Shown: positions 2,587 to 25,347, numbered from the stretch's first letter. The stretch: 64,000 bases of DNA from an uncultured Acidimicrobiia bacterium (GCA_963704825.1 CAVPHV010000017.1:102325-166324); one strand, 5' to 3'. The notes: generated by a model from the sequence alone, not told the origin. Program-made: numbers and translations.

Positions 2587-3648
2587 ATGCGGACACGTAT
2601 GCTCGGGCGTATGACCGACTGGCCATTTGCCTCACCGATCAAACCCATGAAGGCCCGGGTGAAGGAAACTCCGCCGCAGGGCGAAGGTTGGGTGTACGAG
2701 CCCAAGTGGGATGGCTTTCGCGCCATCGCCTGGGGTGGGGCCGAACCAATGCTGGAGAGCCGCAACGGCAAGCCACTGCTGCGCTACTTCCCCGAGCTGC
2801 TTCCGGCGCTCGAGCAACTTCCGGCCGGGACGGTGATTGACGGCGAGGTCGTGGTGGTGGTCGACGACGTCACCCAATTCGACCAGCTCCAACTTCGGAT
2901 CCATCCGGCCGCCTCGCGGATCGAGAGGCTCTCCGGCGAGATCCCCGCCGAGTTGGTGGCCTTCGATCTGCTTGCCGTTGGTGGAGAAGACCTGCGCGCC
3001 ACGCCGTGGGTCGAACGTCGGGAGCGGCTCGAGGAGCTCTTCGCCGGGCTCGAGCTCCCCTGGCATCTCACGCCGGTGACCAGTGACTTCGCTGAGGCCG
3101 AGCGGTGGTTCTCCGAATACGAGGGCGCCGGCTGCGACGGGATCATCTGCAAGCTCGACGACGGCGCCTACGTCGAGGACAAGCGGGTGTGGATCAAGTG
3201 GAAACACCGGCGCGATTGTGACTGCGTGGTCGGCGGCTACCGGGTCCACAAAGACGGTGACAAGATCGGGTCGATTCTGCTCGGTCTCTTCAACGACGAA
3301 GGCAACTTCCACTTCATGGGCCATTGCTCCGGATTCTCCGACCACGACCGGGTCGAGTTGTTGCGCCAATTCGAGCAGATCCGTTCAGACGAGAGCTTTG
3401 GCGGCGATGACGACGTCAGGGTGCCGGGCGCCCAGAGTCGATGGTCGACCGGCAAGGAACTCGACTGGATCCCGGTCACGCCCGGTGTTGTGGTCCAGAT
3501 CAGCTACGACCAGCTCGAGGGTGGCCGGTTCCGTCATGCCACCCGTTTCGAGCGGTGGCGTCCCGACAAGCCGGCCGACGAATGCACCCTGGACCAGTTG
3601 GAACGACCCGAAGGGGCCGGCTTCGCCGAGGTGGTCGATACCTCGTAA
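2587..3648 (+). CDS. ATP-dependent DNA ligase, stand-alone ligase domain (LigC/LigD-ligase-like)
   Basis: Lysine-adenylation motif EPKWDGFR (KxDG) near the N-terminus. Length and motifs fit nucleotidyltransferase plus OB domains. The true start may be an internal Met (MTDWPF...). Confidence 0.8.
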   Translation: MRTRMLGRMTDWPFASPIKPMKARVKETPPQGEGWVYEPKWDGFRAIAWGGAEPMLESRNGKPLLRYFPELLPALEQLPAGTVIDGEVVVVVDDVTQFDQLQLRIHPAASRIERLSGEIPAELVAFDLLAVGGEDLRATPWVERRERLEELFAGLELPWHLTPVTSDFAEAERWFSEYEGAGCDGIICKLDDGAYVEDKRVWIKWKHRRDCDCVVGGYRVHKDGDKIGSILLGLFNDEGNFHFMGHCSGFSDHDRVELLRQFEQIRSDESFGGDDDVRVPGAQSRWSTGKELDWIPVTPGVVVQISYDQLEGGRFRHATRFERWRPDKPADECTLDQLERPEGAGFAEVVDTS

Positions 3649-5036: not shown

Positions 5037-6035
5037 CTACTCGTCTTCCCAGTTCTCGGCCCGCTTTTTCGAGGGCTGCACCCGGGGCGGCTCGCCGGGC
5101 ATCTTGGGGTAGTGCGGTGGCCAGGGGGCATCGCCGATGCCCTGTTCCTCGTCGGCGGCAACCAGGGCCATGGCGGCCTCGAGCGAGCAGGCAGCCTCGT
5201 CGATGCCCTCGGTGAGGTCGCCAACCTCGGCCCAGCGCTCCTTGAACGCCATGATGTCCATCGCCCGGTGGTCGATGGTGGCGAGTTCGTTCCAGCGGAA
5301 TGGGGTCGACACCCATCCGGTGTGCCGGATCGAATAGGCGCTGGCGATGGTTTTGTCCCAGGCGTTCTGGTTGAAGTCGAGGAAAACGCCGTCGCGCTCC
5401 TCCTTCCACCATGCCGTGGTGGCCAGCTCGTGGCGGCGTTCCACCTCGCGGGCGATGGCGAGTCCGGCACGGCGCAGCTCGAAGTAGTCCCAGGATCGTT
5501 CGACTCTTGTGTAGATGTGAATCCCGCGGTTCCCCGATGTCTTGGGCCAGCCGATCAGCCCGAGTTCGTCGAGTACCTCTTTGACGATGGCGGCGACCTC
5601 TCGGGCTGCCTCGAAGTCGTAGTCGTCGGTCGGGTCGAGATCGATCCGCAGCTCGTCGGGATGATCGATGTCGTCGGCGCGGGCGTTCCACGGGTTGAGG
5701 TCGATGCAGTTCATCTGTGCCATCCAGATGACGTCGCCCTCATCCAGGGGAGCGAACATGCGCCCCGGCCGAGCTGAGGGAAACCGGACGTCGACCAGGT
5801 TGCTGGCGCTCTTGGGGCGCTTCACGAACAGGGGTGGCTCAGTAACGCCGCGGTTCCAACGTTTGAGCAGCGACGGCCGGTTATAGACCCCGCGCAGCGC
5901 TCCGGTGGCGCACATCAGGTAGTGCTCGACGACATCGAGCTTGGTCCAGCCCTGTTCGGGGAACATGACCTTGCTCGCGCTCGAGATTCGAATCTCCCGC
6001 CCGGCGGCCTCAACAAAGGTCTCGTCTGAGGCCAC
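5037..6035 (-). CDS. Stand-alone LigD-type polymerase/primase domain protein (NHEJ PolDom, archaeo-eukaryotic primase fold)
   Basis: Motifs KTSGNRGIHIY and DFNQNA are typical of the LigD polymerase domain, as are the length (~330 aa) and acidic residues. Confidence 0.8.
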   Translation of the reverse strand: MASDETFVEAAGREIRISSASKVMFPEQGWTKLDVVEHYLMCATGALRGVYNRPSLLKRWNRGVTEPPLFVKRPKSASNLVDVRFPSARPGRMFAPLDEGDVIWMAQMNCIDLNPWNARADDIDHPDELRIDLDPTDDYDFEAAREVAAIVKEVLDELGLIGWPKTSGNRGIHIYTRVERSWDYFELRRAGLAIAREVERRHELATTAWWKEERDGVFLDFNQNAWDKTIASAYSIRHTGWVSTPFRWNELATIDHRAMDIMAFKERWAEVGDLTEGIDEAACSLEAAMALVAADEEQGIGDAPWPPHYPKMPGEPPRVQPSKKRAENWEDE

Positions 6036-7557: not shown

Positions 7558-9954
7558 TCAGTTGGTCACGATCGAGAACCGGCGATTGGCCTTTTGGGGG
7601 TCCTTGTTGCCGGCCCGGTCCACAACGTGGGCGAGGACCTTGAAGTTCCCGTCCTTCTTCAGGTTGCGGGTGAAGGTCCACGTGGTATCGGTACCGCCGG
7701 GATCGGCCAGGGTGACCCTCGGCAGCTTGACCTTCGGTCCCCACGACCCGTCGGGCTGCAGATACTTTCCGGTGTTGGTGTCCTTGACGATGAGTCTGAC
7801 AAAACCAACCCCGAGGTTGTCGGTTGCCCTTCCCTCGAACTGCACCGTCCGGGATGACAACGTCTGGTCCTTCTTGGGCTTCTTGAAGGTGGCGTTGGGA
7901 GCCGTCGTATCGACGCTGAAGGTGGCGGAGGCCTTGGCAGGGTCTTTGTTGCCCGCCAGGTCCTTGACCTGGACCCACACCTCGAAGTTGCTCTCCGGGA
8001 GTGTGCCATTCCAGTCCCAATTCGTTGTCGGTGTGTTGGGGGATGTCAGATTGGCGGGGACCGCGTTCCAGGCTCCCCAGGTGGTGCCGTTGTCCTGGAG
8101 GTAGTCACCCGTCTCCTTGTCCTTGATGATCAGGTTGACCTCGGCGACCGCAATGTTGTCGGTGGCACCGCCGCTCATGGCGACCGAGGTCGTCGCGAAC
8201 GCTTGGTCCGGGGCCGGGACATCGAGTGTCCCGTCCGGCTCAACCGTGTCGTTGCCGGAGGTCACGACGAACGATCGCGTCGCCGGCGAACCATCCACGT
8301 TGCCGACGATGTCTTCGGCCCTGACCGTGACGGTGTAGCTGCCGTTGGGGAGGTCGCCCGACCAGCCGAACGCGGTCGATGTGGCCTGATACTCGTGGAC
8401 GAAGGAAGGAATCTGGGCCCACGTCCCCGCCCACGTCAAGTCCGGCTGCAGATACTGGTCGTTGCCGGTGTTCTTGACCACCACATAGACCTCGGCGACA
8501 CCCCTGTTGTCGGAGGCGGTGCCGGTGACCGTGACCCGACCGTTGTATACCTGACCGTTGGTCGGCACCGTCAGGCTTCCGTTTGGTGCGGTGGTGTCGC
8601 TGGGTGGGGTCGTGCTCGGGAGCTCGAAGAGGGCGTGACGGAAGGTCTGGAGCCCGCCGAACCGTTCACCGTCGCTGCCGGCGAGGAGCCCAACCGGAGT
8701 GGCCTCGAGGGCGAGGACCCCGCGTTGGCCGGAGGCTCCCGGGTCCCATGGCAAGGCGGTGCCGTTGGCGGGATTGATGGCGCCGATCTGGTTCCGGTCC
8801 ACCGTGTTGGCAGGCTGCGTGTTGGTGTTGCCGTTCCCCCAGTCGGTCCACACCGTTCCCGGCTGCTGGAACCAGCGCATGTGGCCACCGACATAGATCG
8901 CCTCGTCGGTGATGGCGACGGCTTCGGGAGTGTCAAACATGCGAGATACCCACGTTGGGTTCACGCCGTTGCCCCCTGCGGTTGGGAAACGCACTGCGAC
9001 ATCGCATCCTGGGGCGAAGTTGCCGAGAGACGACACGGCTACGAAGTAGGAGCCGTCGGGCGAGAACTGCGCGTCGCGCATCAGCGGCCGGATGAACGAC
9101 TCGAACCACGGCTGGCAGTCGTAGTCGTAGTTGGTGGTCTTCCAGGGCAGCAGGCTGGGGGCTCCGTCGATGTCGATCAGGGCCACGCTTTGGCGCGCCT
9201 CACCGCCGACCTTGCGCGAGTTGTGGACGACCAGCAATGTCTTGCCGTCGGGGGTCACGTCGAGGGCCCGTACCGCACCTGCCCTGTTGTTGGGATCCCC
9301 ATCGATCCAGTACCCGGTTTCCTCGGTGACCGGGAAGTTGAAGTCCGCCGCGACCGCTCCGGTTTGCAGATCAACTGCGGCGAGCTTCTCGCGGGCTGTT
9401 CCGTTGACCTGTGCGAAGCCCCCGCCGAAGTAGACCCGATTGCCCGCAACGACAACGTCGTTGACCACTGCTGTGGCGTTCGCTTTGAAGGCGGTCACGA
9501 CGGATCCGTCGACCACGTTGAGCTTCACGACTCGCTTGCGGCTGAGCCCATTTACCGTGTTGAACTGGCCGACGGCGATGATTGTGCCGTCGCCGGCATC
9601 GGCCAGGGCAAAGACGGGGCCGCTCAGCTCGGGTCGGAATGCCATGTCGAGCCGGCCGGTGGCGATGTCGTAGGCAGCGAGATACGGCTGGTTGACCACA
9701 CCGAAGGTGTTGTCGCGCACCTGGGTGTAGCCCCCGCCGACGATGATGCGGTTGCCGACCTGGACGTGGCCGCGTACCTCGTCGTCGAGGAACTCGGGCG
9801 TATTGGCCCGAGGAACCTCTTTCACCACGTCACCGTGGTTGACTCCAGTGGCGGCTGCTTCGTCAATGGTCAGCGCCATGGTCAACGCTGTTGCCAGCGC
9901 CAGCACGACGACGAAGCCGGAACGAGCGCGGCCCTGTGTGAATCCGATCCCCAT
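7558..9954 (-). CDS. Secreted protein with an N-terminal beta-propeller-like region and three C-terminal ~100-aa Ig-like repeats
   Basis: N-terminal signal peptide (VVVLALATALTMALT). Three tandem repeats each contain ...TDN(R/L/I)GV(A/G)EV/FV...K(N/D)T(G/N).(D/K)YLQ(P/D)(D/N)G.W... . Confidence 0.7.
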   Translation of the reverse strand: MGIGFTQGRARSGFVVVLALATALTMALTIDEAAATGVNHGDVVKEVPRANTPEFLDDEVRGHVQVGNRIIVGGGYTQVRDNTFGVVNQPYLAAYDIATGRLDMAFRPELSGPVFALADAGDGTIIAVGQFNTVNGLSRKRVVKLNVVDGSVVTAFKANATAVVNDVVVAGNRVYFGGGFAQVNGTAREKLAAVDLQTGAVAADFNFPVTEETGYWIDGDPNNRAGAVRALDVTPDGKTLLVVHNSRKVGGEARQSVALIDIDGAPSLLPWKTTNYDYDCQPWFESFIRPLMRDAQFSPDGSYFVAVSSLGNFAPGCDVAVRFPTAGGNGVNPTWVSRMFDTPEAVAITDEAIYVGGHMRWFQQPGTVWTDWGNGNTNTQPANTVDRNQIGAINPANGTALPWDPGASGQRGVLALEATPVGLLAGSDGERFGGLQTFRHALFELPSTTPPSDTTAPNGSLTVPTNGQVYNGRVTVTGTASDNRGVAEVYVVVKNTGNDQYLQPDLTWAGTWAQIPSFVHEYQATSTAFGWSGDLPNGSYTVTVRAEDIVGNVDGSPATRSFVVTSGNDTVEPDGTLDVPAPDQAFATTSVAMSGGATDNIAVAEVNLIIKDKETGDYLQDNGTTWGAWNAVPANLTSPNTPTTNWDWNGTLPESNFEVWVQVKDLAGNKDPAKASATFSVDTTAPNATFKKPKKDQTLSSRTVQFEGRATDNLGVGFVRLIVKDTNTGKYLQPDGSWGPKVKLPRVTLADPGGTDTTWTFTRNLKKDGNFKVLAHVVDRAGNKDPQKANRRFSIVTN

Positions 9955-11023: not shown

Positions 11024-11776
11024 CTATGGGATGGTGGGGAGAAGTGCCCGAATCCGCTCGAGTACGCCGTCGAGAGTCACCACGGTGAAGCGGAAGGTTG
11101 GCGTCTCCGCCGGTTCGGTGGCCACCACCCAATAGCCGAGGTGTCCGGCGTCGAGCACTCGAAGTTCGGCGTCATGGTGAGAGTGGTCGATCTCGGTCCA
11201 CAGACTCGAAACACACCACGTGCGAAGCCGCGACCGATGGGCGAGCACCAGGCGCTTCGCCCAGTGGGCCTCGACGCCGGCGTCGGCGATGATTGCGGTG
11301 GCCGCGGCCGGATCGGTCATCCAGAGGTCCTCGGCGATCTCGATCGTTTCAACCGGGACGATGACCGAGCCATTGAAGCTGGGGTCGGGACGGGCGACGA
11401 TCTTGGTGAGCTGGGCGAGGTGGAACGGGAGGAGGACGGGTTCGATCGAGAAGAGTGCGAAGGCGTCATGGTCGCTCGGTTGGCCGAGGACGGCCTTTCC
11501 GTTGTGGTGCCAGATGGTTGCGATCTCGGTGTGCTCTTCCGTCACCTCGGTGGACACAACGGTGGTTGGTCCGGTCACGACCGAGAGCAGGTCGGCCGCC
11601 AGCGGGTGCAGGATGCCGCCACGGCTGATTCCGGCCCGCTCCAGCTCGGAGATCGCTCGAGTAATGGTCGGGTCTGCGTCGGTGGCGCCCCCGGTTCGCA
11701 GCAACATCGCCACCGGAACCAGGCGGCGGGGCAAGGTGAGGGCGCGTCGCCCGGCGTCGAGTATCGGCTGGGTCAC
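11024..11776 (-). CDS. Hypothetical cytoplasmic protein, third gene of the LysM/membrane-protein operon divergent from the esx-eccC operon
   Basis: ~250 aa, no TM helices. Probable GTG start at 11776 overlaps the upstream stop (GTGA coupling). EspG-like chaperone role considered but not supportable from sequence alone. Confidence 0.5.
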   Translation of the reverse strand: MTQPILDAGRRALTLPRRLVPVAMLLRTGGATDADPTITRAISELERAGISRGGILHPLAADLLSVVTGPTTVVSTEVTEEHTEIATIWHHNGKAVLGQPSDHDAFALFSIEPVLLPFHLAQLTKIVARPDPSFNGSVIVPVETIEIAEDLWMTDPAAATAIIADAGVEAHWAKRLVLAHRSRLRTWCVSSLWTEIDHSHHDAELRVLDAGHLGYWVVATEPAETPTFRFTVVTLDGVLERIRALLPTIP

Positions 11777-12708
11777 TGAGTGGCAGATCCGTGTGAGGCC
11801 GGAGGGCCGGGGAGGATGTCGGCCACTTCCCATTCGCCCCCGTTGCTGGAGAGCTCCAGTGTGTAGGCCACGACATGGACGATTCCGTTTGGCGTGGTTG
11901 CGTTGACGACGGTGCTCACGTAGGTCCGGCCATCGACAACACCTGTCGCCAGCTCAGACAGGGCAACCGCCTGATAGGGGAACGGCTCGATTGCCCGGAT
12001 GTCGCTGCCTGCGACGGTGTAACGCGACAGACGGTGCGACCCAACGAGCATGGCGTCGAGGAACTCTGCGGTGAACTCGGCCAGCTCGGCGTCGACCTCG
12101 TCTGCGAGGGGCGGGATAGGCGGCGGCGTCGGGGCGGGCGGCCCAGCAACTCGTGCCGGGATCTCGGTCACGATGAGCCGCCCATCGACCTTCATGACTC
12201 CGACTTGGTAGTGCTCGATCCCTGCCGAGACGTATCCGTTCTCGGTACGCTCCATGACCTCGGTGGCCACGGTCACATCCCAGTAGGCGCCGCCGAGCGT
12301 CCGGATCTCGATAGTGGCTGCTCGAGTCACATACCGATCGAGTGGTGACATCGCCGCCATCGTCGCCTGGGGTGCCATGAAGGTCTCAACGGACTGGCCG
12401 TTGGTCCCGCCTCCCGTCAGATAGGTCGCGATGAAGAGTTCGGCGAACCCGTCGACGCCGGAGGGCGGAGCAGGGGGTGCCGACACGGTGGCGCTCTGCG
12501 CTGCTCGGGATGCCCACAGCCCCGCCGCGGCGGCGAGCAGAGCGCCGATGGCGAGCGCGACGATGAGACCCCTGGTAGGTCTGCCCGCACGGTGTCTTGG
12601 GTACGGCGGGGCCGGTTCGATTTCCGCTTCGGTTGAGGGCTGAGTCTCCGCCCCGAAATAGTCCTCGATGTCGGTGACGGGTCTCCCAAAATCGAAGTGC
12701 GTGGTCAT
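11773..12708 (-). CDS. Single-pass membrane protein with a ~35-aa cytoplasmic N-terminus, one TM helix and a ~250-aa extracytoplasmic domain
   Basis: ATG at 12708 with GAGGA SD. It overlaps the LysM gene stop (ATGA). TM segment GLIVALAIGALLAAAAGLWA followed by a Pro-rich stretch and a globular domain. Confidence 0.6.
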   Translation of the reverse strand: MTTHFDFGRPVTDIEDYFGAETQPSTEAEIEPAPPYPRHRAGRPTRGLIVALAIGALLAAAAGLWASRAAQSATVSAPPAPPSGVDGFAELFIATYLTGGGTNGQSVETFMAPQATMAAMSPLDRYVTRAATIEIRTLGGAYWDVTVATEVMERTENGYVSAGIEHYQVGVMKVDGRLIVTEIPARVAGPPAPTPPPIPPLADEVDAELAEFTAEFLDAMLVGSHRLSRYTVAGSDIRAIEPFPYQAVALSELATGVVDGRTYVSTVVNATTPNGIVHVVAYTLELSSNGGEWEVADILPGPPASHGSATQ

Positions 12709-13487
12709 GGCTGTTCCTCGGCAACGGCGGGCAACACAACGATCTCGCCGGGATAGATGAGGTCGGGGTCGCTCGAGCGGATGACGTCTTGGTTGGCGAC
12801 GACAACGCGGTGCCAGTACTCGCCGACATCGGGCAGTTGGGCCCCCGAGGCCGCGAAGGTACCGAGGTGTTGTTCGGCAATAGTCCACAGGTTGTCGCCG
12901 GGGGCCACGGTCCACTGCGCCGGCTCGGTGATCACCATGGAGGTGGGCGCCGCAGTTGCCGGGCTGGGCACTCCTGCTGGGGTGGGGGTCCATCCGACTC
13001 GGGTGGCTCCCTGTGGCAAGGTCTCGGCCGGCTCGGGGTCTTCGCTGCCGACAAACGGCGGAATGGGGAGGCCGTCCTCGCCGATTCCTACGACGATCGG
13101 AGAGGGTCCGTCGGTGGCGATGGCGGACATGGCCGGTCCGGCGACGGTCGCGGCGACGATGGTCAGTGCCGCCGTGCCGTCAACGACCCTGCGCACCGCC
13201 GGGAGCGTTGCCCACTCGATCGCCCGTGCCGCGCCCGGAATCCTGGCCAACCGGGCCAGGGCGTAGAGCGCCGTTGAGATCGCAAGCCAGTAGGCAAGAG
13301 CCAGCGCGACGATCCGGAGTAGTGCCGGCAGCGACTCGTCGGCGGGAGTCTGCTGGAGCCAGTTTCCCAGCTGACGCCATGGAATCTGGAGCCACTCAAC
13401 CTCTCCGATGGCGTGTAGGGCCACGAGCGCGCCGGCCTCGAAGACGATCAGCGTGGCCGCCCGGACCCCTCTCGATTCTCGTTCCAT
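12705..13487 (-). CDS. Membrane-anchored LysM domain (peptidoglycan-binding) protein
   Basis: 2-3 N-terminal TM helices, a Pro-rich linker and a C-terminal LysM (WTVAPGDNLWTIAEQHLG...IYPGEIVVLP). Start ATG at 13487 (MERESRG); an upstream alternative TTG start exists at 13523. Confidence 0.65.
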   Translation of the reverse strand: MERESRGVRAATLIVFEAGALVALHAIGEVEWLQIPWRQLGNWLQQTPADESLPALLRIVALALAYWLAISTALYALARLARIPGAARAIEWATLPAVRRVVDGTAALTIVAATVAGPAMSAIATDGPSPIVVGIGEDGLPIPPFVGSEDPEPAETLPQGATRVGWTPTPAGVPSPATAAPTSMVITEPAQWTVAPGDNLWTIAEQHLGTFAASGAQLPDVGEYWHRVVVANQDVIRSSDPDLIYPGEIVVLPAVAEEQP

Positions 13488-13489
13488 TG

Positions 13490-13580
13490 AGTCATCATAT
13501 GCATTGCTAAATGTGTTTGTCAATAGTCAACAATCGTTATACTATATTGACAATTGTTAAATACCTTACATAATCTTCAA
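13490..13580. promoter_or_regulatory. AT-rich (~30% GC) divergent promoter island between the LysM operon and the WXG100-EccC operon
   Basis: Plus-strand promoter: -35 TTGACA at 13547-13552, 17-nt spacer, -10 CATAAT/ATAATC at ~13569-13575. Minus-strand promoter: -35 TTGACA (complement of 13516-13521), 17-nt spacer, -10 ATATGA (13493-13498) for a near-leaderless LysM gene. Near-palindromes TTGTCAATAGTCAACAA and TTGACAATTGTTAA overlap the -35 boxes. Confidence 0.55.
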
Positions 13581-13643
13581 CTATGACCAAGTCGACCGGC
13601 CCTGCGGTCGGTCGACTCGAGCAAGGAAGGAAGGACCAGCACA

Positions 13644-13916
13644 ATGGCGAATATGTTTGGGGCGGATCTGTCGGATCTCGCGGCCCTGCGGGGGACGTTT
13701 GAGACAAAGGCGGGCGAGGTCCAGGCGCTGACCGGAGAACTGTCGGCAAAGGTGGACCCGGCCGCAACGGCGTGGCAGGGGCCGGGCGCCGACAACTTCC
13801 GGGCGGCATGGAACGGCGACTTCAAGCCGGCACTCACCAAGCTCGAGACGGCCCTCGAGGAAGCCGCAGTTGCCGTCGGCAAGTACCGCGAGAACATCGA
13901 GGCGGCTACCCGGTAA
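13644..13916 (+). CDS. WXG100 family type VII secretion target (EsxA/EsxB-like), 90 aa
   Basis: Helical hairpin with central WQGPGADNF (WxG) motif. Size ~90 aa. SD GGAAGGAAGGA upstream. Confidence 0.85.
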   Translation: MANMFGADLSDLAALRGTFETKAGEVQALTGELSAKVDPAATAWQGPGADNFRAAWNGDFKPALTKLETALEEAAVAVGKYRENIEAATR

Positions 13917-13946: not shown

Positions 13947-14309
13947 GTGACCCCGCACCAGCTCCGGCAATTGGCCGACCGCAATCGGGCGGAGGCGGAC
14001 GCACTGACGGCGTCCGCCGCCCGACTGCGGACGACTGCCGAGTCGTTCCGCGATCTGCTGGAGGGGATTCCCGACCAATCCCGCCGGGTCTGGCAGGGAC
14101 CGGCCGCGACCGACTTCGAGGACAAGGCGCAGGCCGCAGACCGTGATCTCCGCCAACAGGCTCAGGTTCTGTTGAGCACCGCGAGCGACTTCGATCGGGA
14201 GGCGGCAGATCTCAGGGCAGCGGCCCGCGGGCTCGAGGTGCGAGCTGCTGCTGAGGAGGCGGCGACCGTTCCGGGTGAATCGGGTCCGCCTCCAACCGGC
14301 GTGTGGTGA
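13947..14309 (+). CDS. WXG100 family protein, 120 aa, second Esx-like gene
   Basis: Central WQGPAATDFE (WxG) motif. Paired with the upstream WXG100 gene and immediately followed by eccC. Confidence 0.8.
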   Translation: MTPHQLRQLADRNRAEADALTASAARLRTTAESFRDLLEGIPDQSRRVWQGPAATDFEDKAQAADRDLRQQAQVLLSTASDFDREAADLRAAARGLEVRAAAEEAATVPGESGPPPTGVW

Positions 14310-17300
14310 GTGATGCAGATCGTTGTGCACCGCGCCGGAGCCGAGTTCGAGGTGGTACTCGCCGTCGGCGACGAATCGGCCTCACTCGGCGAGATCGTGG
14401 CCGGGTGGTTCGAGGATGCCCCGGCGGCATTTGTCATCGACGGTGTGGTGCGATCGGGAGATACTCCCCTCGCAGCAAGTGGTCTGAGATCTGGATCAGT
14501 GCTCATTCCGCTGGCAGCAGCAGGCCCTATCCCCGAACTGACGGAGGGTGGGCTGGGCGCGGTCGGGCGGCCGTCCTCCTCCTCTCGCATTCCCTTCAAC
14601 CGCCCGCCGCGGCCAGAGTATCCGGTGTCGCTGCCGGCCATCGAGGTGCCGGCCGCACCGCCGGTGGCCAAAGCCTCGACCCGTTTTGGCTGGGGAGCGC
14701 TGGTCGTTCCGCTGATACTCGGACTGGTCATGGCGGTGTTCTTTCACCCCCGGATGGCGCTGTTCGCTCTCTTCAGCCCGGCCATGATGCTGGCCAACTG
14801 GATGGAAGACCGCAGGCGCAGCCGGCGCGAGCGCAGGAGCAGCCAAGCCGACCTCGATCGCAGTCTCGCCGGATTCGGGGACCGGCTCGACGACCTCGCC
14901 ACCGCCGCCGCCCGACTCAAACGCCGCGAGGTGCCGCATCCCGATGGGCTGATTGCATCTCTTGTCGCCGGGAGTCTGCGGATGTGGGAGCGTCGGGTCC
15001 ATCACCCCGACGCCATGGTGCTCGGAATTGGCAGCGGCGACGTCGCGTGGAGCCCGGCCCTGATCACCCCACCTGGGGGCGCCGCGGAGGAGGCGCTGGC
15101 ATTGCTGGCGACGCGCCGCGAGTTGCGCGGGGTTCCGGTCGAAGTCGAGTTGCGGCCCGGTGAGGTGACGGGACTGGTCGGCGATCGCCGCCGCGCCCTT
15201 GGCATGGCACGCTCGCTCCTGATTCAGGCTGCGATCCTCCACGGTCCGGCTGATCTCGAGCTCACGGTGGTCACCGACGCTCCGGATGTGTGGGATTGGA
15301 TCAAGTGGCTGCCTCACGCCGACCTCGACCCGGTGGCTGGGCTGCGCCGGCTCGGAGCCGACCGTGAGGACGTCGGCCCGGTCGTTACCGCCCTGTTGGA
15401 GTCGATTGAGCGGGATCCCGGAGGCAGCGGGCCGATGCGATTGCTCGTCGCCGATGTTGTGGATGTTGCCGCCGAAAGGTGGCAGCGGGTGCGAGAGGGG
15501 CTGAGCGCCGCGGCTCGGGGCAAGGCCGCCGCCATCGCGATTGCCCGCTCGATGAGCGAGTTGCCGTCGGTGTGTACTTCGATTGTTGCGGTTGGTGCCG
15601 GCGGGCCAGCACAGCTGCGGGCTCCCGCAGAGAATCGAAACGTCGGCGGGATTGCGCCGTGGGTCGTTGCTGCGGCGACGGCGCGCCGTGCGGCACGGGC
15701 GCTCGCCGGGTTTCGGGATCCCGATGTTGTCGCCGGTGCAGCAGAGCTTCCCCACCAGGTTCGTCTGCCTGATCTTCTTGGAATCTCCGATCCAACGCCG
15801 GACGCCATCCTGCGCCGCTGGCAGGCCGCAGGCGCCGCCCCGCGCCCGGCGGCCCCCATCGGCATGACCGCCGACGGTCCGCTTCTTGTCGACTTTGTGT
15901 CGGATGGACCCCACGCTCTGTTGGCCGGGACCACCGGCGCCGGTAAGTCCGAGCTGCTGCGCACGTTGGTCGCCTCCCTGGCGGCAACGAACGACCCCGA
16001 CCACCTCACCTTCGTGCTGATCGACTACAAGGGAGGGAGCGCCTTCGACGTCTGCGCCGACCTGCCCCACACCGTTGGTCTGGTAACGGATCTCGATGGG
16101 CACCTGGCGTCGCGGGCGCTCACCTGCCTGGAAGCCGAACTGCGCTACCGCGAGCAGCGTTTGCGCGCTGCGGGGGCATCTGATCTTGCCGCGTACTTGG
16201 CGGGTGGCGAGCCGGAGCCGCTGCCCCGGCTGCTGGTTGTCATCGACGAGTTCGCTGCCCTGGCCAAGGAACTGCCGGCGTTCATGGCGTCCCTCGTCGA
16301 CATCGCCCAGCGCGGCCGCAGCCTTGGGGTGCACCTCTTGCTCGCCACCCAACGGCCCGGGGGTGTGATCAGCGACAGCATCCGCGCCAACACCAACCTG
16401 CGGATGGCGCTGCGAGTCCAGGATGGGTCCGACTCGACCGACGTCCTGGGCATCCCGGACGCGGCAACGATTGGTCGGATGCAGCCGGGCCGTGGCCTGG
16501 TGCGGCGCGGACCCGGTGATGTGGTGCCGTTCCAGACGGCGCTGGTCACTACACCAAGGGGCGATGGCGCGGCAACCGCAGCTGCGGTGCGGCCGTTTGT
16601 CTTCGGCTACGAGCAGCCTGCGGCGGCAGGCACCGACCGCACCGAAACCGGTCCGACCGACCTGGGGGCGCTGGTCGACGCGGTGACTGGGGCGACCGCC
16701 ACCCTCGGGCTCGAGCCACCGCGTCGACCGTGGCCGGACCCGCTCGAAACCAACGTGGCCGCCAAGCTTCTCGACGCGACCCCGCCCGATCAGGTGCGCG
16801 GCGCGCGGATCGCGGTGCCGCTCGGGCTCGCCGACGAGCCCACCCACCAGCGGCAGCGGACCGCGTGGTGGTCAAGTGAGGATGGCAATCTGCTCCTGTA
16901 CGGCGTGCCTGGTTCGGGAACGACGACTGCTCTGGCGACCATCGCGCTTGGGGTGGCGGGACGCCACTCGCCGGACGATGTGCACGTGTACGTCATGGAC
17001 TTCGACGACCAGCGCTTGGCCCCATTGGCCGGTCTCCCCCACGTCGGGGCGGTGGTCGGGGCAGGGGAGCGAGAGCGTCAGCTGCGCCTCCTGCGGTTTC
17101 TCCAGGCCGAGGTGGAGGAGCGCCGGGTGGCGGTGGCGGCCGATCCGGCAGTCCTCGGGGAATTGCCCGCCCTGCTGGTGCTGGTGGACAATTACGCCGG
17201 TCTGGCGGCGGCCTTCGACGAGCCGGCCGACATGGCGGTGCGGACCATTCTCCCCCGGGTCGCGGCTGATGGCCCCGGCGTCGCCATCCATGTCGTGGCC

Positions 17301-18221
17301 ACGGCAAAACAGCCCATCGACATACCCGCCCAGCTGGGTTCTCTGGTCCCCGCCAAGCTGGCCTTTCGCCTCACCGATCGCTACGAGTACGGCGGGCTCG
17401 GCATCCCCATCGAAGAGGTGCCAAGGATCCCGGGACGCGCTCACCAATCGGGGACGGGGCAGGAGATCCAGATCGCTCGAGCCCATCCCGGTGGTGTCGC
17501 CGCGGCCGTAGACGCGCATGCCGACCAGGCAGTGGCGCGGCCACCGCATCGCATCGAGGTACTCCCCACCGAAGTCAAGGTGCCCGACATCGTCGATGCG
17601 GCGCGCGTCTTCGACCTCGAGTGGTCCCTGCCGATCGGGATCGGAGATCACGACCTCAGCCCGGTGGGGTTCGTGCTCGGCGAGGGAGATCACGTTGTGG
17701 TCGCCGGGCCGCCACGGTCGGGCAAGTCGACGGCGCTGATGACCATGGCTGCGATCGTGGCGAGCCACCGGCCCGACGTGATCATCACCGCGGTGGCTCT
17801 GCGGCGCTCTCCATTGCGAGACTGCCCGCAGGTGACGCGGCTCGTCACGGATCCTGAGCAGCTCGAGGATGCCCTTGGTTCGGTGCCCAACGGCGATGGG
17901 TCGCCCCATCTCGTGCTGGTCGATGACGCCGGGATGGTCGACGACGAGGGCGGCTGGCTATCCGCAATGGTCGCTTGCCGTCGGCCCGGGGTGCATCTGG
18001 TGGCGGCCGACCAGGCGGACACGCTGCGGGCCGCCTACGGGCATTGGACCAAGGATGTGCGACGTTCCCGTCTCGGACTCGCCCTCAAGCCGAACGCAGG
18101 CTCCGACGGGGATCTATGGCTAACGCCACTGCCGCGTCGAGGTCCGCCTCACTTCCCTCCCGGGCGGGGCTACCTGTTGGCGGATGGCCGCTGTGAGCTG
18201 GTGCAGACGGCATGGCAGTGA
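14310..18221 (+). CDS. eccC: EccC-like type VII secretion FtsK/SpoIIIE family ATPase with three P-loop NTPase domains
   Basis: 1303 aa. N-terminal soluble domain then two TM helices (~aa 125-165). Three Walker A sites: LLAGTTGAGKSE, LLLYGVPGSGTTT (degenerate) and VVVAGPPRSGKST. Start directly abuts the second WXG100 gene. Confidence 0.9.
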   Translation: MMQIVVHRAGAEFEVVLAVGDESASLGEIVAGWFEDAPAAFVIDGVVRSGDTPLAASGLRSGSVLIPLAAAGPIPELTEGGLGAVGRPSSSSRIPFNRPPRPEYPVSLPAIEVPAAPPVAKASTRFGWGALVVPLILGLVMAVFFHPRMALFALFSPAMMLANWMEDRRRSRRERRSSQADLDRSLAGFGDRLDDLATAAARLKRREVPHPDGLIASLVAGSLRMWERRVHHPDAMVLGIGSGDVAWSPALITPPGGAAEEALALLATRRELRGVPVEVELRPGEVTGLVGDRRRALGMARSLLIQAAILHGPADLELTVVTDAPDVWDWIKWLPHADLDPVAGLRRLGADREDVGPVVTALLESIERDPGGSGPMRLLVADVVDVAAERWQRVREGLSAAARGKAAAIAIARSMSELPSVCTSIVAVGAGGPAQLRAPAENRNVGGIAPWVVAAATARRAARALAGFRDPDVVAGAAELPHQVRLPDLLGISDPTPDAILRRWQAAGAAPRPAAPIGMTADGPLLVDFVSDGPHALLAGTTGAGKSELLRTLVASLAATNDPDHLTFVLIDYKGGSAFDVCADLPHTVGLVTDLDGHLASRALTCLEAELRYREQRLRAAGASDLAAYLAGGEPEPLPRLLVVIDEFAALAKELPAFMASLVDIAQRGRSLGVHLLLATQRPGGVISDSIRANTNLRMALRVQDGSDSTDVLGIPDAATIGRMQPGRGLVRRGPGDVVPFQTALVTTPRGDGAATAAAVRPFVFGYEQPAAAGTDRTETGPTDLGALVDAVTGATATLGLEPPRRPWPDPLETNVAAKLLDATPPDQVRGARIAVPLGLADEPTHQRQRTAWWSSEDGNLLLYGVPGSGTTTALATIALGVAGRHSPDDVHVYVMDFDDQRLAPLAGLPHVGAVVGAGERERQLRLLRFLQAEVEERRVAVAADPAVLGELPALLVLVDNYAGLAAAFDEPADMAVRTILPRVAADGPGVAIHVVATAKQPIDIPAQLGSLVPAKLAFRLTDRYEYGGLGIPIEEVPRIPGRAHQSGTGQEIQIARAHPGGVAAAVDAHADQAVARPPHRIEVLPTEVKVPDIVDAARVFDLEWSLPIGIGDHDLSPVGFVLGEGDHVVVAGPPRSGKSTALMTMAAIVASHRPDVIITAVALRRSPLRDCPQVTRLVTDPEQLEDALGSVPNGDGSPHLVLVDDAGMVDDEGGWLSAMVACRRPGVHLVAADQADTLRAAYGHWTKDVRRSRLGLALKPNAGSDGDLWLTPLPRRGPPHFPPGRGYLLADGRCELVQTAWQ

Positions 18222-19753
18222 GCGGCTTTCGCGGGATTGATCCCGACGGGCTCGTTGGGTTGAGCCGGATGATGGAGGGCACTGCGGCTGAGGTGCTCGC
18301 CGCAGGCAACCTGGGCTACGCGGTGCTCGTCCGCCGCGACCGGGAGTCCGCCGGCGACCGCTTCGGGATGGCGATGAGTCGCCTCGCCCGGCAACTCGAC
18401 GACGAGGCGGCGGAAATGAGCTGGCGGGCTGAGGCAATTCGACGGGGTCAGCTGATGACCTCCTCGTCGATGCCCTCGATGGTGGTTGCCGAACTCCTCT
18501 GGGAAGAGGCTGAGTTCGCCGCGGCCGCCAGGTTCACCGTCGGCGACCGTCAGGTGAGCTTCGAACAGTGGCGCCAACGCCCGCCGGTCCGCGCCCTGAG
18601 GAAGATGCGGCCGGACCAGGTGTCGGCGGCCTTGGCGGCCATGTCTCTCGCGGCAGTCGATCGCCTCCTGCTCGAAGAGCCAACCCTGGTGGGGGGGTTG
18701 GACGGAGCCCCCGCTTGGCTGCGGTGTACCGCAAACGACATGCTGATCGGGCGGGAGGTGAATCGGCTCGCCGGACTTGCCGCCGAGATCGCGGATGAGA
18801 TCAACCAGTTGGAGGATCTCGAGTGGTCGGGCCGCACCACGCAGCAGCGTCTGGTGCGCGAGGTGTACCTCGACGAACTCGAGCGGATCGAGGCGCGCAT
18901 CGCCATGTTCGGTCGGTGGTTGGCCGAGGATCGCCAGATCCTGCTGTTCGACCCTCGAGGTGACGGCCGAGTCGCTGAGGTGTTCGGAGACCTCGACCAA
19001 GCTGGTTTTGTCGCCGTGGTGGTGCCGGGGATCACCAACGACATCGACAACTTCGGTCCGATCGACGGTGGGGGGTTTCGAGCCAACGCCGGACAGCTCT
19101 ACGAGGAGGCGGCGAGGCTCGAGCCCGACGTGGCCACAATCGCCTGGCTGGGCTACGACACGCCCGATGGCGCCGATGCGGCGCTAGCCGGTGCCGCTGA
19201 GGACGGTCACCGCCACCTCGTTGCCTTCACCAAGGGTCTTGCCGCAGCGACTCCCGAACCGCACCTCACCGTCATCGGTCACAGCTACGGTTCGCTGGTC
19301 ACCGGGATGGCGGCGGGTGCCGGCATGGCGGTTGACGATGTTGTGTTCGTCGGAAGCCCCGGAACCAGCCTCGACCGGGCAAGCGAGGCGATCATCGACA
19401 GGGGGGGACGGGTGTGGGCGGGCTTGGCGCACAAGGACCCGATCGGGGCGGGCATCGATCCCCTTCCCGACTCGGCATGGGAGTTCATGCTCGGCCCAAT
19501 CGGCTCGTACGTATGGGACAGCTTTGGGACCGGTGACTACGCGACGGAGGACCTGTGGCATGGCCGCAACCCCGTTCACGAGTCGTTCGACGCCATCGAG
19601 TTCACTACCGATGGCGCCGCGGGTCATTCGCAGTACTTCGCCGCCGGCACCGAATCGTTGGCCAACCTGGCGCGCATCATCGCCGGTCTCGACTTCGCCG
19701 TCCGCTTGGTCGGTGGCGGCGAACTAGCAGCCGACTCAGTCGAAGACGATTGA
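18212..19753 (+). CDS. DUF1023-type alpha/beta hydrolase with N-terminal helical domain; candidate T7SS-associated substrate/effector
   Basis: 513 aa. GHSYGS nucleophile elbow and downstream Asp/His-containing segments in the C-terminal half. N-terminal ~250 aa helical. Start overlaps the eccC stop by 10 nt. Confidence 0.7.
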   Translation: MAVSGFRGIDPDGLVGLSRMMEGTAAEVLAAGNLGYAVLVRRDRESAGDRFGMAMSRLARQLDDEAAEMSWRAEAIRRGQLMTSSSMPSMVVAELLWEEAEFAAAARFTVGDRQVSFEQWRQRPPVRALRKMRPDQVSAALAAMSLAAVDRLLLEEPTLVGGLDGAPAWLRCTANDMLIGREVNRLAGLAAEIADEINQLEDLEWSGRTTQQRLVREVYLDELERIEARIAMFGRWLAEDRQILLFDPRGDGRVAEVFGDLDQAGFVAVVVPGITNDIDNFGPIDGGGFRANAGQLYEEAARLEPDVATIAWLGYDTPDGADAALAGAAEDGHRHLVAFTKGLAAATPEPHLTVIGHSYGSLVTGMAAGAGMAVDDVVFVGSPGTSLDRASEAIIDRGGRVWAGLAHKDPIGAGIDPLPDSAWEFMLGPIGSYVWDSFGTGDYATEDLWHGRNPVHESFDAIEFTTDGAAGHSQYFAAGTESLANLARIIAGLDFAVRLVGGGELAADSVEDD

Positions 19754-20401
19754 TTCGAGCATGGCTTCTCCCTCGGCAATCCGTTGCACGTTCAGATCGC
19801 CCTCATAGAGGAACGCGGCATATAGGGTGCCCGTTGCTGCCTCGATCAGGACAAAGCGGCTGACCGAAACCGTGCCGTCGTCATGGGAGATGGTGCGCTC
19901 CACGATATGGGCCGGAGCGCCGTCGATCGTCGCTTCCTCAGCCACGGTGACCTCGCTGGTGCCGGGGGTGGGGAAGAAGAACTCAGCGAAGAGGTCGGCA
20001 TTGGCGTCGGCGATCTCGGCTGGAGTTCCTGCGTCGGCGAAGTCGAGGTCTTCGGAGGCGAAGCCGATGAAGAGGACGCCGCCGGGCCCCTCCTCGGTGT
20101 CGATCAAGGCGGCAACACGCCCGTAGGTGATGCCGTCCTGGCGCACCACCCAGTCGCGTGGCACCGTGATCGAGATCCCGAGCGGCTCCACGGCAACCGG
20201 GTCGAGCGGGGCAGGCGCCGCGGCGCTCGACGTTGTCGGCGCCGCCGATGTCGTCGCACTGGGCGAGGCAGTGGTCGAAGTCGTCGTTGCTGTGGTTGTT
20301 GTGGTGGTGGCCGTGTCGGTTGCGGAGCACGCCGTCGCGGCGAGGACGACGACGGCGAGGGCTGCTGGCAACAACGTCCTACGGATGGGCATGGCCGCCA
20401 T
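19736..20401 (-). CDS. Secreted/lipo-protein with Thr-rich linker
   Basis: Signal peptide with LAATAC lipobox-like motif, poly-Thr linker and a globular C-terminal domain. It overlaps the yibE/F-like gene start, so the two are probably co-transcribed. Confidence 0.6.
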   Translation of the reverse strand: MAAMPIRRTLLPAALAVVVLAATACSATDTATTTTTTATTTSTTASPSATTSAAPTTSSAAAPAPLDPVAVEPLGISITVPRDWVVRQDGITYGRVAALIDTEEGPGGVLFIGFASEDLDFADAGTPAEIADANADLFAEFFFPTPGTSEVTVAEEATIDGAPAHIVERTISHDDGTVSVSRFVLIEAATGTLYAAFLYEGDLNVQRIAEGEAMLESIVFD

Positions 20402-23739: not shown

Positions 23740-23993
23740 AACGCCACGTACGCCCCGGTTGTGTGGAGCGTGATGTCCGAGGCGTTGTCGAACCCTGTGG
23801 TGCCGGACTGTCGGGTCCACACCGGTTCACCATCCGTAGTGAATCTGCGGACATAGCCGTCCAGACGCCGACGTTGGTCTGGCTGGGCAGCGCCCCTTCA
23901 GTCGTCACACGGTCCTAGGACCCTGGACCGGTGGGTCAGCGCAGCCGCAGAATGCGGAGAGGACCTGCGTGGCGATCTCGTGGAGGATCTGAG

Positions 23994-25271
23994 ATGAACA
24001 CCTCAAGGGTGGCGAAGCTTCTTGTCGCGGTTGCCCTGTTGACTGGATGGATGCTGTTGCCGGGCGGGGCCGAGGCAGCCGGCGGGGACTTCGAGGGTCC
24101 CAATTTCCGTATCAGCGGCAGCTCCGACACTGGGCACGAGTGGTTCCCCTCGGTGGCCTACAACTCGACCGATGACGAGTATCTCGTCGTCGGTCAAGAC
24201 GGCAGCGGACACGTCATCGGGCAGCGGATTGCGCCCGATGGCCGCCGCTTGGGTGAGATGTTCGGTATCAGCGGCAACCGGGCTGTCGGCGTGTCCGTCC
24301 CAGCCGTCGTTCACAATCCCGTTGACAGTGAGTATCTGGTCGTGTGGTGGGACGCCCGGCGCGCCAAGGGTGGCGACGGTGACCCGACAGGCGACATTTT
24401 CGCCCAGCGGATCGCCGCCGATGGCAGTCGAATCGGGTGGAATCTGAGAATCAGCGGGAAGGAGATCACATGGCGCTGGGACCCTGATCTGGTCCACAAT
24501 GTCGTCCGCAACGAGTATCTCGTCGTCTGGGAAAGCTCGCGGGATATCGTCGGTCAACGACTCTCGTCAAGTGGCGAGCGGATTGGCAGGAGGATTCCCA
24601 TCAGCGCTGCCGACAGCGTGCAGGCGGCGTATCCATCGGTTGCCCATGACGCAGCCCACAACAGGTACCTGGTGGTCTGGCAAGACGGCAGGAACCTCGA
24701 CGTGTCCGACTGGGATGTCTATGGCCAGCGGATCGCTGCCAAGGGCAGACTCGTGGATGCCAACTTCCGGATCAGCGGTGCAGCCGCGACCGCGTCGGAT
24801 CAGTATCCGGGTGTCGGGTTCAATACCAACCGCAACCAATACCTGGTCTTTTGGCATGACGAGCGGAGAAATCGACAAGTTGGCGCCGATGTCTACGGGC
24901 AGCGACTTTCGGCCAAGACAGAACGCTTGGGCGGCAACTTCCGGCTCACCAACGACATGACGAAGTCCAATGGCTGTTGCCAGTCGCACAACGTTGCCTA
25001 CAACCCAACAAGCGATCAGTACCTGGCGCTGCTGGCGCCCATCGATCAGGCCGGGCACGTCTACGGGCAAAGGATGCGGGCCAACGGAAAGCGCCTTGGT
25101 GCTGCCTTCCGCATCAGCGGCCCAAACGCCGATGTCTTTGGATACGGTTCGAACGCCGTTACCTGCCATCCGCTACGGAACGAGTACGTGGCCGTTTGGG
25201 CCGACGCCAGGAACGTGGACACCCGGGGGATCGACATCTATGGCCGGCGAGTCACCGGGGCGGCCCCGTAG
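23994..25271 (+). CDS. Secreted protein built from ~8 tandem ~45-aa repeats (beta-propeller-like)
   Basis: Signal peptide (MNTSRVAKLLVAVALLTGWMLLPGGAEA). Repeats share the pattern NFRISG...YLVVW.D.R...DIYGQR...G.R.G. SD GGAGG 8 nt upstream of ATG 23994. Confidence 0.65.
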   Translation: MNTSRVAKLLVAVALLTGWMLLPGGAEAAGGDFEGPNFRISGSSDTGHEWFPSVAYNSTDDEYLVVGQDGSGHVIGQRIAPDGRRLGEMFGISGNRAVGVSVPAVVHNPVDSEYLVVWWDARRAKGGDGDPTGDIFAQRIAADGSRIGWNLRISGKEITWRWDPDLVHNVVRNEYLVVWESSRDIVGQRLSSSGERIGRRIPISAADSVQAAYPSVAHDAAHNRYLVVWQDGRNLDVSDWDVYGQRIAAKGRLVDANFRISGAAATASDQYPGVGFNTNRNQYLVFWHDERRNRQVGADVYGQRLSAKTERLGGNFRLTNDMTKSNGCCQSHNVAYNPTSDQYLALLAPIDQAGHVYGQRMRANGKRLGAAFRISGPNADVFGYGSNAVTCHPLRNEYVAVWADARNVDTRGIDIYGRRVTGAAP

Positions 25272-25347
25272 CCAACTCTCTCAAGAGGCGTGTGCCGCTT
25301 TTGCGCAGCACCGGTGACCGCCTCCGGGTCCGGTATCCTGTCGCCGC

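Follow-up and report, generated by a model that had tools for sequence, protein, structure and literature searches.

Do three minus-strand genes that lie back to back with an esx-eccC cluster belong to the same secretion system as that cluster? This question is raised by positions 11024 to 13523 of a 64,000-nucleotide (nt) stretch of DNA (hereafter the window) from an uncultured Acidimicrobiia bacterium (GCA_963704825.1, CAVPHV010000017.1:102325-166324). An initial annotation had proposed that the three genes, here called P1, P2, and P3, supply wall-anchoring or chaperone parts to the esx/eccC system. Our analysis supports that proposal, through the LysM, TcpC-like, and EspG-like parts of the products and through the co-occurrence of the genes. 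We consider it likely that the locus encodes an undescribed, Acidimicrobiia-specific type VII secretion system (T7SS) variant, in which a VirB8/TcpC-like scaffold and a LysM anchor replace the canonical membrane partners. This interpretation is based on the folds of the products, the coupling of an EspG-like gene to P2, co-occurrence across loci, a motif specific to the P2 clade, conserved promoters, and the ratios of nonsynonymous to synonymous substitution (dN/dS). The absence of EccB, EccD, EccE, MycP, VirB4, and relaxase from the window proteins scanned was also counted in its favor. Acidimicrobiia are an abundant, mostly uncultured class of environmental Actinomycetota.

Inspection of the sequence confirmed that the three minus-strand genes overlap as initially annotated. 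P1 (12705 to 13487) encodes a membrane protein of 260 amino acids (aa), assigned from hydropathy, LysM matches, and the gene call in the public ENA record. P2 (11773 to 12708) encodes a 311-aa bitopic TcpC/VirB8-like protein, assigned from Pfam PF12642, AlphaFold2 (AF2) modeling, Foldseek, and motif and clade analysis, and P3 (11024 to 11776) encodes a 250-aa soluble EspG-like chaperone, assigned from AF2, Foldseek, and Pfam PF14011 in orthologues. The same lengths were given for all three products by the independent gene caller in the ENA record. An ATGA at 12705 to 12708 (CAGCCATGACCACG, minus strand) is common to the stop codon of P1 and the ATG start of P2, and a GTGA at 11773 to 11776 (ACTCAGTGACCCAG, minus strand) is common to the stop codon of P2 and the GTG start of P3. 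Tight junctions were also found in orthologues, with 4-nt overlaps in loci L005 and L031 and either a 1-nt overlap or gaps of 13 to 26 nt between the trio genes in L001 and L002. The G+C content at third codon positions (GC3) is 0.77 to 0.82 for the three genes, and dN/dS, calculated by the Nei-Gojobori method against three orthologous loci, is 0.15 to 0.39 for all of them. These values indicate that P1, P2, and P3 are real genes under purifying selection. The GC content of the window is ~65%, and its nearest public relatives are metagenome-assembled genomes of Acidimicrobiia.

When the family profiles of P2 and P3 were compared with PDB sequences, no match was obtained; the folds were found by structure prediction followed by Foldseek searches. 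The EspG-like, TcpC-like, and NTF2-like folds that the initial annotation had singled out for structural searches were all recovered, the first in P3 and the others in P2, which is TcpC-like and has two NTF2-like domains. P3 had been described as a soluble protein of ~250 aa, and it is indeed 250 aa long with no transmembrane segment. Its AF2 model has a predicted local distance difference test score (pLDDT) of 91.6 and a predicted template modeling score of 0.85. The top 18 PDB matches of this model were all EspG5, EspG3, or EspG1 (E 1e-12 to 4e-9, template modeling [TM] scores of 0.53 to 0.68, probability 1.00), and the first non-EspG match followed at an E value of 4e-3. The P3 orthologues in L001 and L002 matched PF14011 over their full length at scores above the cut-off of 27 (35.9 and 41.7 bits), and a precomputed PF14011 match was present in 24 of the 27 database homologues of P3. 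EspG is a T7SS-specific chaperone.

P2 matched the Pfam TcpC family (PF12642) at 33.6 bits, above the cut-off of 27, with residues 88 to 295 covering positions 1 to 230 of the 231-position profile. Hydropathy analysis placed a single transmembrane helix at residues 44 to 68 (nt 12505 to 12579), with the N-terminal tail in the cytoplasm. The description of P2 as a bitopic protein with an outside domain of ~250 aa was thus borne out (transmembrane segment at about residues 46 to 66, ~245 aa outside). The AF2 model showed two extracytoplasmic NTF2-like domains, at residues 85 to 187 and 207 to 299 (nt 12148 to 12456 and 11812 to 12090), each consisting of a helix and a curved sheet and having a domain pLDDT of 81 to 96. 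The best PDB matches were TcpC of pCW3 (3UB1, E 6e-11) and OrfG of ICESt3 (7PKW, E 2e-8), and TraM of pIP501 (4EC6) was matched with a TM-score of 0.72 over one domain. The cytoplasmic tail bears the acidic motif GxPVxDIEDY (nt 12658 to 12687), which takes the form G-x-P-V-x-D-I/L-E/D-D-Y/F across the clade. Only T7-linked P2 proteins have this motif, the tails of the T4-type proteins being basic, and in a neighbor-joining tree the T7-linked P2 proteins form one clade. An exhaustive hidden Markov model search put the wider TcpC-like family at 1697 clusters, compared with the 10 to 27 homologues retrieved by word-indexed protein searches. Among 147 newly listed clusters at 50% identity, at least 11 have the acidic motif, and 3 more have the variant PLLELLE, which replaces PVxDIEDY at the N terminus of the subclade of locus L033.

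The genetic setting of P2 differs from that of its profile family, which otherwise acts in conjugative type IV secretion systems (T4SS). Neither in the window nor in the T7-type loci does P2 lie inside a conjugative T4SS module, as no VirB4/TcpF, TcpE, VirB6-like protein, or wall hydrolase of such a module was found. The initial annotation had noted that profile searches might assign the operon to an unrelated pathway. For P2, the nearest profile family is a conjugative one. P2 therefore looks like a protein taken over from a T4SS rather than a classical T7SS part, and conjugative T4SS modules are its probable source. Such modules are common in Actinomycetota.

Of the 60-odd loci covered by the comparison, 16 retrieved loci were found to have the LysM, TcpC-like, and EspG-like trio, in addition to the window. 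Cassette loci came from Acidimicrobiia genomes and metagenome contigs (L001 to L007, L031, L032, L037 to L043, L046, and L047), with P2 identities ranging from 84% down to 33%. In the shared layout, the genes for the LysM protein with three transmembrane segments, the TcpC-like protein, and the EspG-like protein run one way, and those for WXG100, WXG100-like protein, and EccC, usually followed by a hydrolase, run the other way. WXG100 genes adjoin the trio in 13 of the 13 loci with enough upstream flank, and EccC comes next in all 12 loci whose flank reaches that far; the loci cited for this co-occurrence are L001 to L007, L031, L032, L037, L039, L040, L041, and L046. Conservation of the operon apart from WXG100 or EccC neighbors, which the initial annotation had named as a sign against a common system, was therefore not seen within the orthologous clade. 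T4SS markers were absent from all trio-bearing loci examined. The cassette stays intact where its flanks are altered: L002 has MMPL and TetR insertions beside the EspG-like gene, and L041 lacks the hydrolase. In L033 (1 to 2099; 32% P2 identity), a TcpC-like gene is directly divergent from a WXG-like pair, with no LysM or EspG-like gene, in an unrelated neighborhood where SpoU methylase and alpha-amylase genes follow; the contig stops after 136 aa of the presumed EccC, which is thus unconfirmed at this locus.

A different picture was obtained for the distant TcpC homologues, which are at most 36% identical to P2 and come from Acidimicrobiales, Streptomyces, Actinomadura, Kitasatospora, and Limnocylindria. 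All of their loci with enough flank carry a Gram-positive conjugation module, and none was found to contain EccC or WXG100. The genes of the module follow the order TcpC, small transmembrane protein, TcpE, VirB4-like AAA_10 ATPase, a protein of ~800 aa, and, where checked (L008 and L044), a CHAP hydrolase. The ~800-aa protein has no Pfam match and is VirB6-like by position only. L008, the only locus with its upstream region annotated, has primase-helicase and ParA genes upstream, and L034 also has a ParA-type gene.

The T7SS side of the window contains the parts looked for in a T7SS in general, namely, an EccC/EssC multidomain FtsK-like ATPase and a WXG100 protein in one locus. The first gene (13644 to 13916, plus strand) encodes a 90-aa EsxA/B-like WXG100 protein that scored above the cut-offs of both PF06013 (38.2 bits) and TIGR03930 (46.9 bits). 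The second (13947 to 14309, plus strand) encodes a 120-aa WXG100-like protein with a WQG motif; its scores are all below the cut-offs (WXG100, 19 bits; TIGR03930, 23.7 bits; PPE, 19.7 bits), and it is kept at the same position in every locus. EccC (14310 to 18221, plus strand; 1303 aa) has FtsK/SpoIIIE-type ATPase domains, preceded by a ~70-aa N-terminal domain and by a hydrophobic segment (residues 124 to 155) that hydropathy indicates is long enough for two transmembrane helices. It scored 398.8, 291, and 495 bits against the NCBIfam models for EccCa, EccCb, and EssC, respectively, in each case below the equivalog cut-off, and so appears to represent a divergent lineage. The following gene (18212 to 19753, plus strand) overlaps the eccC stop by 10 nt and is translationally coupled to eccC; it encodes a 513-aa Abhydrolase_8 (DUF1023) protein (PF06259, 132.6 bits) in which an N-terminal region of ~240 aa without a Pfam match precedes the hydrolase domain. 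This gene follows eccC in L001, L002, L005, L006, and L031 and is absent from L041, where YibE/F comes directly after eccC. A search of the N-terminal 240 to 250 aa of the hydrolase and two orthologues for a T7SS signal or an LXG or WXG domain gave no Pfam match, and the protein is a candidate secreted substrate inferred from gene position.

To define what the locus lacks, 45 window proteins were scanned, essentially all predicted genes above ~200 aa in the 64-kb window; at most 20 kb was covered in other genomes. EccB, EccD, EccE, the mycosin MycP, EssB, VirB4, VirD4, and relaxase were not detected among the 45 proteins, and EccB, EccD, EccE, and MycP were also absent from the precomputed annotation of L001 to L004 and L031. 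EssA, the EssB pseudokinase, EsaA, and EsaB/YukD were not found at the locus, nor were primase or ParA found in the window or the T7-type loci. No gene above ~200 aa is left unassigned within ~10 kb in the T7SS-type loci. With respect to regulatory domains, the N-terminal 197 aa of EccC gave no FHA or YukD match in Pfam at E values up to 1, and no separate YukD/EsaB-like gene was found at the locus. A profile of residues 1 to 70 (14310 to 14520) built with five orthologues gave only insignificant PDB matches, three of the top five being ubiquitin-like (ISG15, ubiquilin 3, and RAD23; E 0.8 to 1.8). By analogy with EccD of ESX, the EccC N terminus may be a fused ubiquitin-like module. In L005, the EccC orthologue is split between two frames at residue 171/172 (7886 to 7888), through either a frameshift or an assembly error.

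The AT-rich divergent island that the initial annotation had seen as common to the trio and the WXG100 genes was confirmed as a 120-bp intergenic region (13524 to 13643) of 44% GC. A consensus scan identified two back-to-back sigma-70-like promoters, each agreeing with 11 of 12 consensus positions; 3 promoter-like sites were observed in the region, compared with 0.2 expected from shuffled sequences. The P1-P2-P3 promoter (13494 to 13523, minus strand) consists of a -35 element TTGACA (13523 to 13518), an 18-nt spacer, and a -10 element TATGAT (13499 to 13494). The esx-eccC promoter (13547 to 13574, plus strand) consists of TTGACA (13547 to 13552), a 16-nt spacer, and CATAAT (13569 to 13574). 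Across six loci whose P2 identities range from 84% to 33%, the TTGACAA box and the TA of the -10 element are invariant in the trio promoter, as is the box AAC..TTGTCAA in the esx-eccC promoter. The start of P1 at TTG 13523 is probably wrong, as this TTG begins the conserved -35 hexamer TTGACA, with the -10 element and then ATG 13487 downstream. P1 most likely starts at ATG 13487, which gives the 260-aa product. This ATG lies 6 nt past the -10 TATGAT, a geometry also present in L002, L005, and L006, and the trio mRNA is probably leaderless. We considered whether the two conserved -35 boxes form one palindromic operator and rejected this as the principal interpretation, as the distance between them varies by 10 nt among the loci, with L002 and L031 having the shorter one. 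Separately, a 12-nt inverted repeat (AGTCGACCGGCC / GGTCGGTCGACT; 92% complementary, 4-nt loop) occupies 13590 to 13617, within what is predicted to be the 5' leader of the first WXG100 gene. It is kept in the close relatives L005 and L006 and could be a regulatory stem-loop.

P1 had been annotated as a membrane-anchored LysM protein. It is a membrane protein with a divergent LysM domain, but it has three predicted transmembrane segments and not a single anchor. Hydropathy of P1 and five orthologues placed the helices at approximately nt 13395 to 13466, 13248 to 13334, and 13113 to 13175; they are followed by a proline-rich linker and a C-terminal, extended LysM domain at residues ~191 to 254 (nt 12726 to 12917). 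The charged loops are predicted to put this domain outside the membrane. The LysM part matched NCBIfam PRK11198 (E 1.3e-6) and shares 42% identity (E 4e-11) with one LysM repeat in the LysM-BTAD protein of L027, which itself clears the Pfam LysM cut-off via another of its repeats (34.7 bits). P1 matches LysM-BTAD proteins in the LysM domain only.

Large LysM-BTAD proteins (686 to 1378 aa) adjoin T4SS-type TcpC genes in L027 (5465 to 9601) and L035 (461 to 2521), and LysM-type matches also lie a few kilobases from TcpC in L026, L067, L068, and L073. The LysM repeats of these neighbors have the extended form of P1 (39 to 42% identity). Since P1-like extended LysM domains occur near T4SS-type TcpC genes, the pairing of LysM with TcpC may be older than its recruitment into the T7SS locus. 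We also compared the three-transmembrane domain of P1 with proteins encoded upstream of T4SS-type TcpC genes and rejected a relationship; by inspection and not alignment, the upstream proteins of L008, L009, and L023 have 0 or 1 predicted transmembrane segment versus three in P1.

Several points weigh against assigning the trio to a new T7SS variant. P1 scored 18.3 bits against the Pfam LysM model (PF01476), under the cut-off of 20.9, because of an insertion in the domain; three of its orthologues scored 18.2 to 19.9 bits, and two gave no match. P3 scored 20.9 bits against PF14011, under the cut-off of 27 and through its N-terminal part only. The overall pLDDT of the P2 model is 72, a moderate confidence, and its whole-chain TM-scores to TcpC are low (0.28 to 0.38) because the two domains are oriented differently. 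To our knowledge, every TcpC/VirB8-like protein characterized so far serves DNA transfer rather than protein secretion by a T7SS. SurE and YibE/F flanks are common to many of the supporting loci, which therefore do not count as fully independent. What the analysis shows is the gene content, the folds, the predicted topologies, the coupling, the conservation of the promoters, and a strict co-occurrence; that P1 and P2 physically associate with EccC is purely inferred. Finally, EccB, EccD, or MycP could be encoded elsewhere in the genome. In that event, the locus might be an ordinary ESX system (T7SSa) with EccB, EccD, EccE, and MycP at a distance and P1 and P2 as lineage-specific add-ons instead of replacements. 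The extent of sequence examined, 64 kb of the genome, speaks for this explanation, as does the fact that EccC scores highest against the actinobacterial EccCa and EccCb models combined. However, T7SS core genes are normally clustered, none of them lies within ~10 kb in any locus, and EccC, with scores under all NCBIfam equivalog cut-offs, is of a divergent lineage; we regard the explanation as unlikely.

The conjugative affinity of P2 bears on two further explanations. The locus might encode a chimeric apparatus for DNA or nucleoprotein transfer, built from the FtsK/SpoIIIE-family EccC, the VirB8-like scaffold, and a wall-binding protein. We judge this improbable: relaxase, VirB4, VirD4, primase, and ParA are absent from the window and the T7-type loci, the site is a conserved chromosomal housekeeping position and not a mobile element, and WXG100 proteins, an EspG chaperone, and a hydrolase are the standard content of a protein-secreting T7SS. 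The idea nevertheless draws on the membership of EccC in the FtsK/SpoIIIE family, on the restriction of the TcpC family elsewhere to conjugation modules in the loci examined, and on mycobacterial plasmids whose TcpC-like protein, VirB4, and VirD4 are accompanied by a T7SS, with conjugation requiring both. ESX-1/ESX-4-dependent distributive conjugal transfer offers a precedent. Alternatively, the trio could be an independent envelope module or a decaying conjugative remnant that stands beside esx-eccC through inherited synteny. The SurE and YibE/F flanks common to most supporting loci would allow adjacency to be inherited and not selected, and the nearest profile family of P2 is a conjugation protein, yet all three genes are under purifying selection, and P3 has the T7SS-specific EspG fold. 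Moreover, the cassette holds together when the flanks change (L002 and L041), the TcpC-like gene of L033 is still beside WXG genes in a different neighborhood, P2 has its clade-specific cytoplasmic motif, the paired promoters are conserved, and no other T4SS gene survives nearby. We give this explanation little credence as well.

If the locus is an Acidimicrobiia-specific T7SS variant, as we favor, the following mechanism can be proposed. Of the two sigma-70-type promoters, one would drive esxA-esxB-eccC-hydrolase and the other, facing away from it, a leaderless P1-P2-P3 mRNA, whose products would be kept in proportion by translational coupling. P3 would hold a helical substrate in the cytoplasm, the candidates being either the two WXG100 proteins or the Abhydrolase_8 protein's N-terminal domain, and hand it to EccC, the membrane-anchored ATPase that would power export. 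In the manner of the VirB8-type scaffolds of T4SSs, P2 would use its two NTF2-like domains to oligomerize on the outer face of the membrane and form a collar above EccC, with the acidic tail GxPVxDIEDY as a candidate contact to the ATPase. Through its three transmembrane segments and extracellular LysM domain, P1 would tie the assembly to peptidoglycan. Together, P1 and P2 might do the job thought to belong to the large extracytoplasmic domain of EccB in ESX systems. Cell-wall binding has been proposed for that domain, so P1 and P2 would be a functional analogue of EccB. A bolder proposal, which we hold to be doubtful but worth stating, is that EccC, a VirB8-type scaffold ring, and a LysM anchor make up a minimal trans-envelope channel of three membrane proteins that could move DNA or nucleoprotein in addition to WXG100 proteins. 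Such a channel would demonstrate that parts can be exchanged as modules between T4SSs and T7SSs.

The remaining window genes are housekeeping genes, among them those for SurE, HSP20, LigD, YibE/F, ProC, proline dehydrogenase, PFOR, and glycogen metabolism. A 221-aa probable lipoprotein with a Thr/Ser/Ala-rich linker (19736 to 20401, minus strand) is encoded by a gene that converges on the hydrolase gene, with which it shares 18 nt, and that shares a further 23 nt with the YibE/F gene. It is kept at this position in L001, L002, and L005 (26 to 78% identity) and may be part of either the T7SS cassette or the YibE/F operon. Two open reading frames (ORFs), at 6 to 2567 (853 aa) and 23931 to 25271 (446 aa), have coding-like GC3 and no Pfam match at an E value of 1e-4. 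A 580-aa ORF (24977 to 26719) has only a weak match to an Rv1476-like membrane protein and precedes a PspA/IM30 gene. Genes for an ATP-dependent DNA ligase and a LigD primase-polymerase of nonhomologous end joining (2587 to 3648 and 5037 to 6035) are split by an AI-2E transporter gene, and the pair is syntenic in L001.

These findings extend T7SS biology to Acidimicrobiia. Our literature search for T7SS in Acidimicrobiia, for the term "T7SSk," and for surveys based on metagenome-assembled genomes returned nothing, with most subscription journals outside its coverage. Two T7SS architectures (a and b) are well studied and eight were inferred from gene neighborhoods in 2024; a VirB8/TcpC-like or LysM component is used in none of the ten. 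If our interpretation is correct, this would be a very small T7SS, with one ATPase, one three-transmembrane protein, and one single-transmembrane protein, and its size would make the locus a convenient case for defining the minimal partners that EccC needs in a functioning channel. On the same reading, it would offer a clear case of a T7SS putting a T4SS scaffold to new use. A 2026 study reportedly describes the opposite case, in which the T4SS protein TraF is a structural homologue of the T7SS protein EssB/YukC; both cases bear on the evolution of Gram-positive secretion machines.

Like the T7SSa (ESX) of Actinomycetota, the locus belongs to an actinobacterial host and combines a WXG100 pair with an EccC-type ATPase and an EspG chaperone. 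It differs in that ESX systems pair EccC with EccB, EccD, EccE, and MycP, none of which is present in the locus or window, where P1 and P2 are found instead. EccE is also absent from some ESX-4 systems. P3 has the fold of the mycobacterial EspG proteins of ESX-1, ESX-3, and ESX-5 (4KXR, 4L4W, and 5VBA; E 1e-12, TM-scores of 0.63 to 0.68) at only 12 to 17% identity to the solved structures. In contrast to mycobacterial EspG genes, that of P3 shows translational coupling with the gene for a VirB8-like protein, and PE/PPE genes are missing from the locus save for the sub-threshold PPE match of the second WXG100-like protein. P2 has the layout of TcpC (3UB1), OrfG (7PKW), TraM (4EC6), and PrgL (7AED), with a cytoplasmic N terminus, one transmembrane segment, and tandem NTF2-like domains. 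However, the partners of these Gram-positive VirB8-like T4SS scaffolds are TcpE, VirB4/TcpF, VirB6-like, and CHAP proteins, whereas those of P2 are WXG100, EccC, and EspG, and T4SS-type TcpC proteins have a basic N-terminal tail in place of the acidic GxPVxDIEDY tail of P2, which falls in a separate clade. The pRAW-type conjugative plasmids of mycobacteria also carry a TcpC-like protein and a T7SS on one replicon, functionally linked, and need both T4SS and T7SS genes (Ummels et al. 2014, PMC4173767; PMC12857230; PMC13037476). Those plasmids have a complete ESX together with VirB4, VirD4, and relaxase; here, none of these three is present, the ESX set is incomplete, and the genes occupy a housekeeping site on the chromosome. 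TcpC-like proteins are not known to be linked to T7SS other than on pRAW-type mycobacterial plasmids.

Among the other subtypes, T7SSb assembles EssA, EssB, EsaA, EsaB/YukD, and an FHA domain on EssC, whereas none of these proteins was found at this locus and no FHA match was found in Pfam. T7SSd is the only other actinobacterial non-a type and includes the Ser/Thr kinase TsdD, TsdH, the giant Ig-rich TsdI, and the FHA-bearing TsdC (PMC11217815); TsdD, TsdH, and TsdI are absent here, and there is no kinase and no FHA domain. A 798-aa Ig-domain protein encoded two genes from the cassette (7558 to 9954, minus strand) was considered as a TsdI-like component and rejected, since SurE lies between it and the cassette and it is absent in L001. 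This protein has a hydrophobic N-terminal segment, Big_7/Big_13 Ig-like repeats, and beta-propeller motif matches that are all sub-cut-off; it is probably secreted, is found near SurE in L002 and L075, and is probably not part of the system. T7SSc to T7SSj were defined from EssC neighborhoods (Garrett, Higginson, and Palmer 2024, PMC11217815), and the text of that paper contains zero mentions of TcpC, VirB8, NTF2, LysM, or peptidoglycan. Relative to T7SSb to T7SSj, the present locus is without a separate gene for a ubiquitin-like TsxB, a kinase, a phosphatase, or an FHA protein. EspG-fold proteins, EsaE/TsxG, have been reported in some of these other subtypes, as P3 is here (PMC11217815). The locus also follows the logic common to T7SSb to T7SSj, in which a conserved ATPase and WXG100 proteins are combined with lineage-specific membrane partners (PMC11217815).

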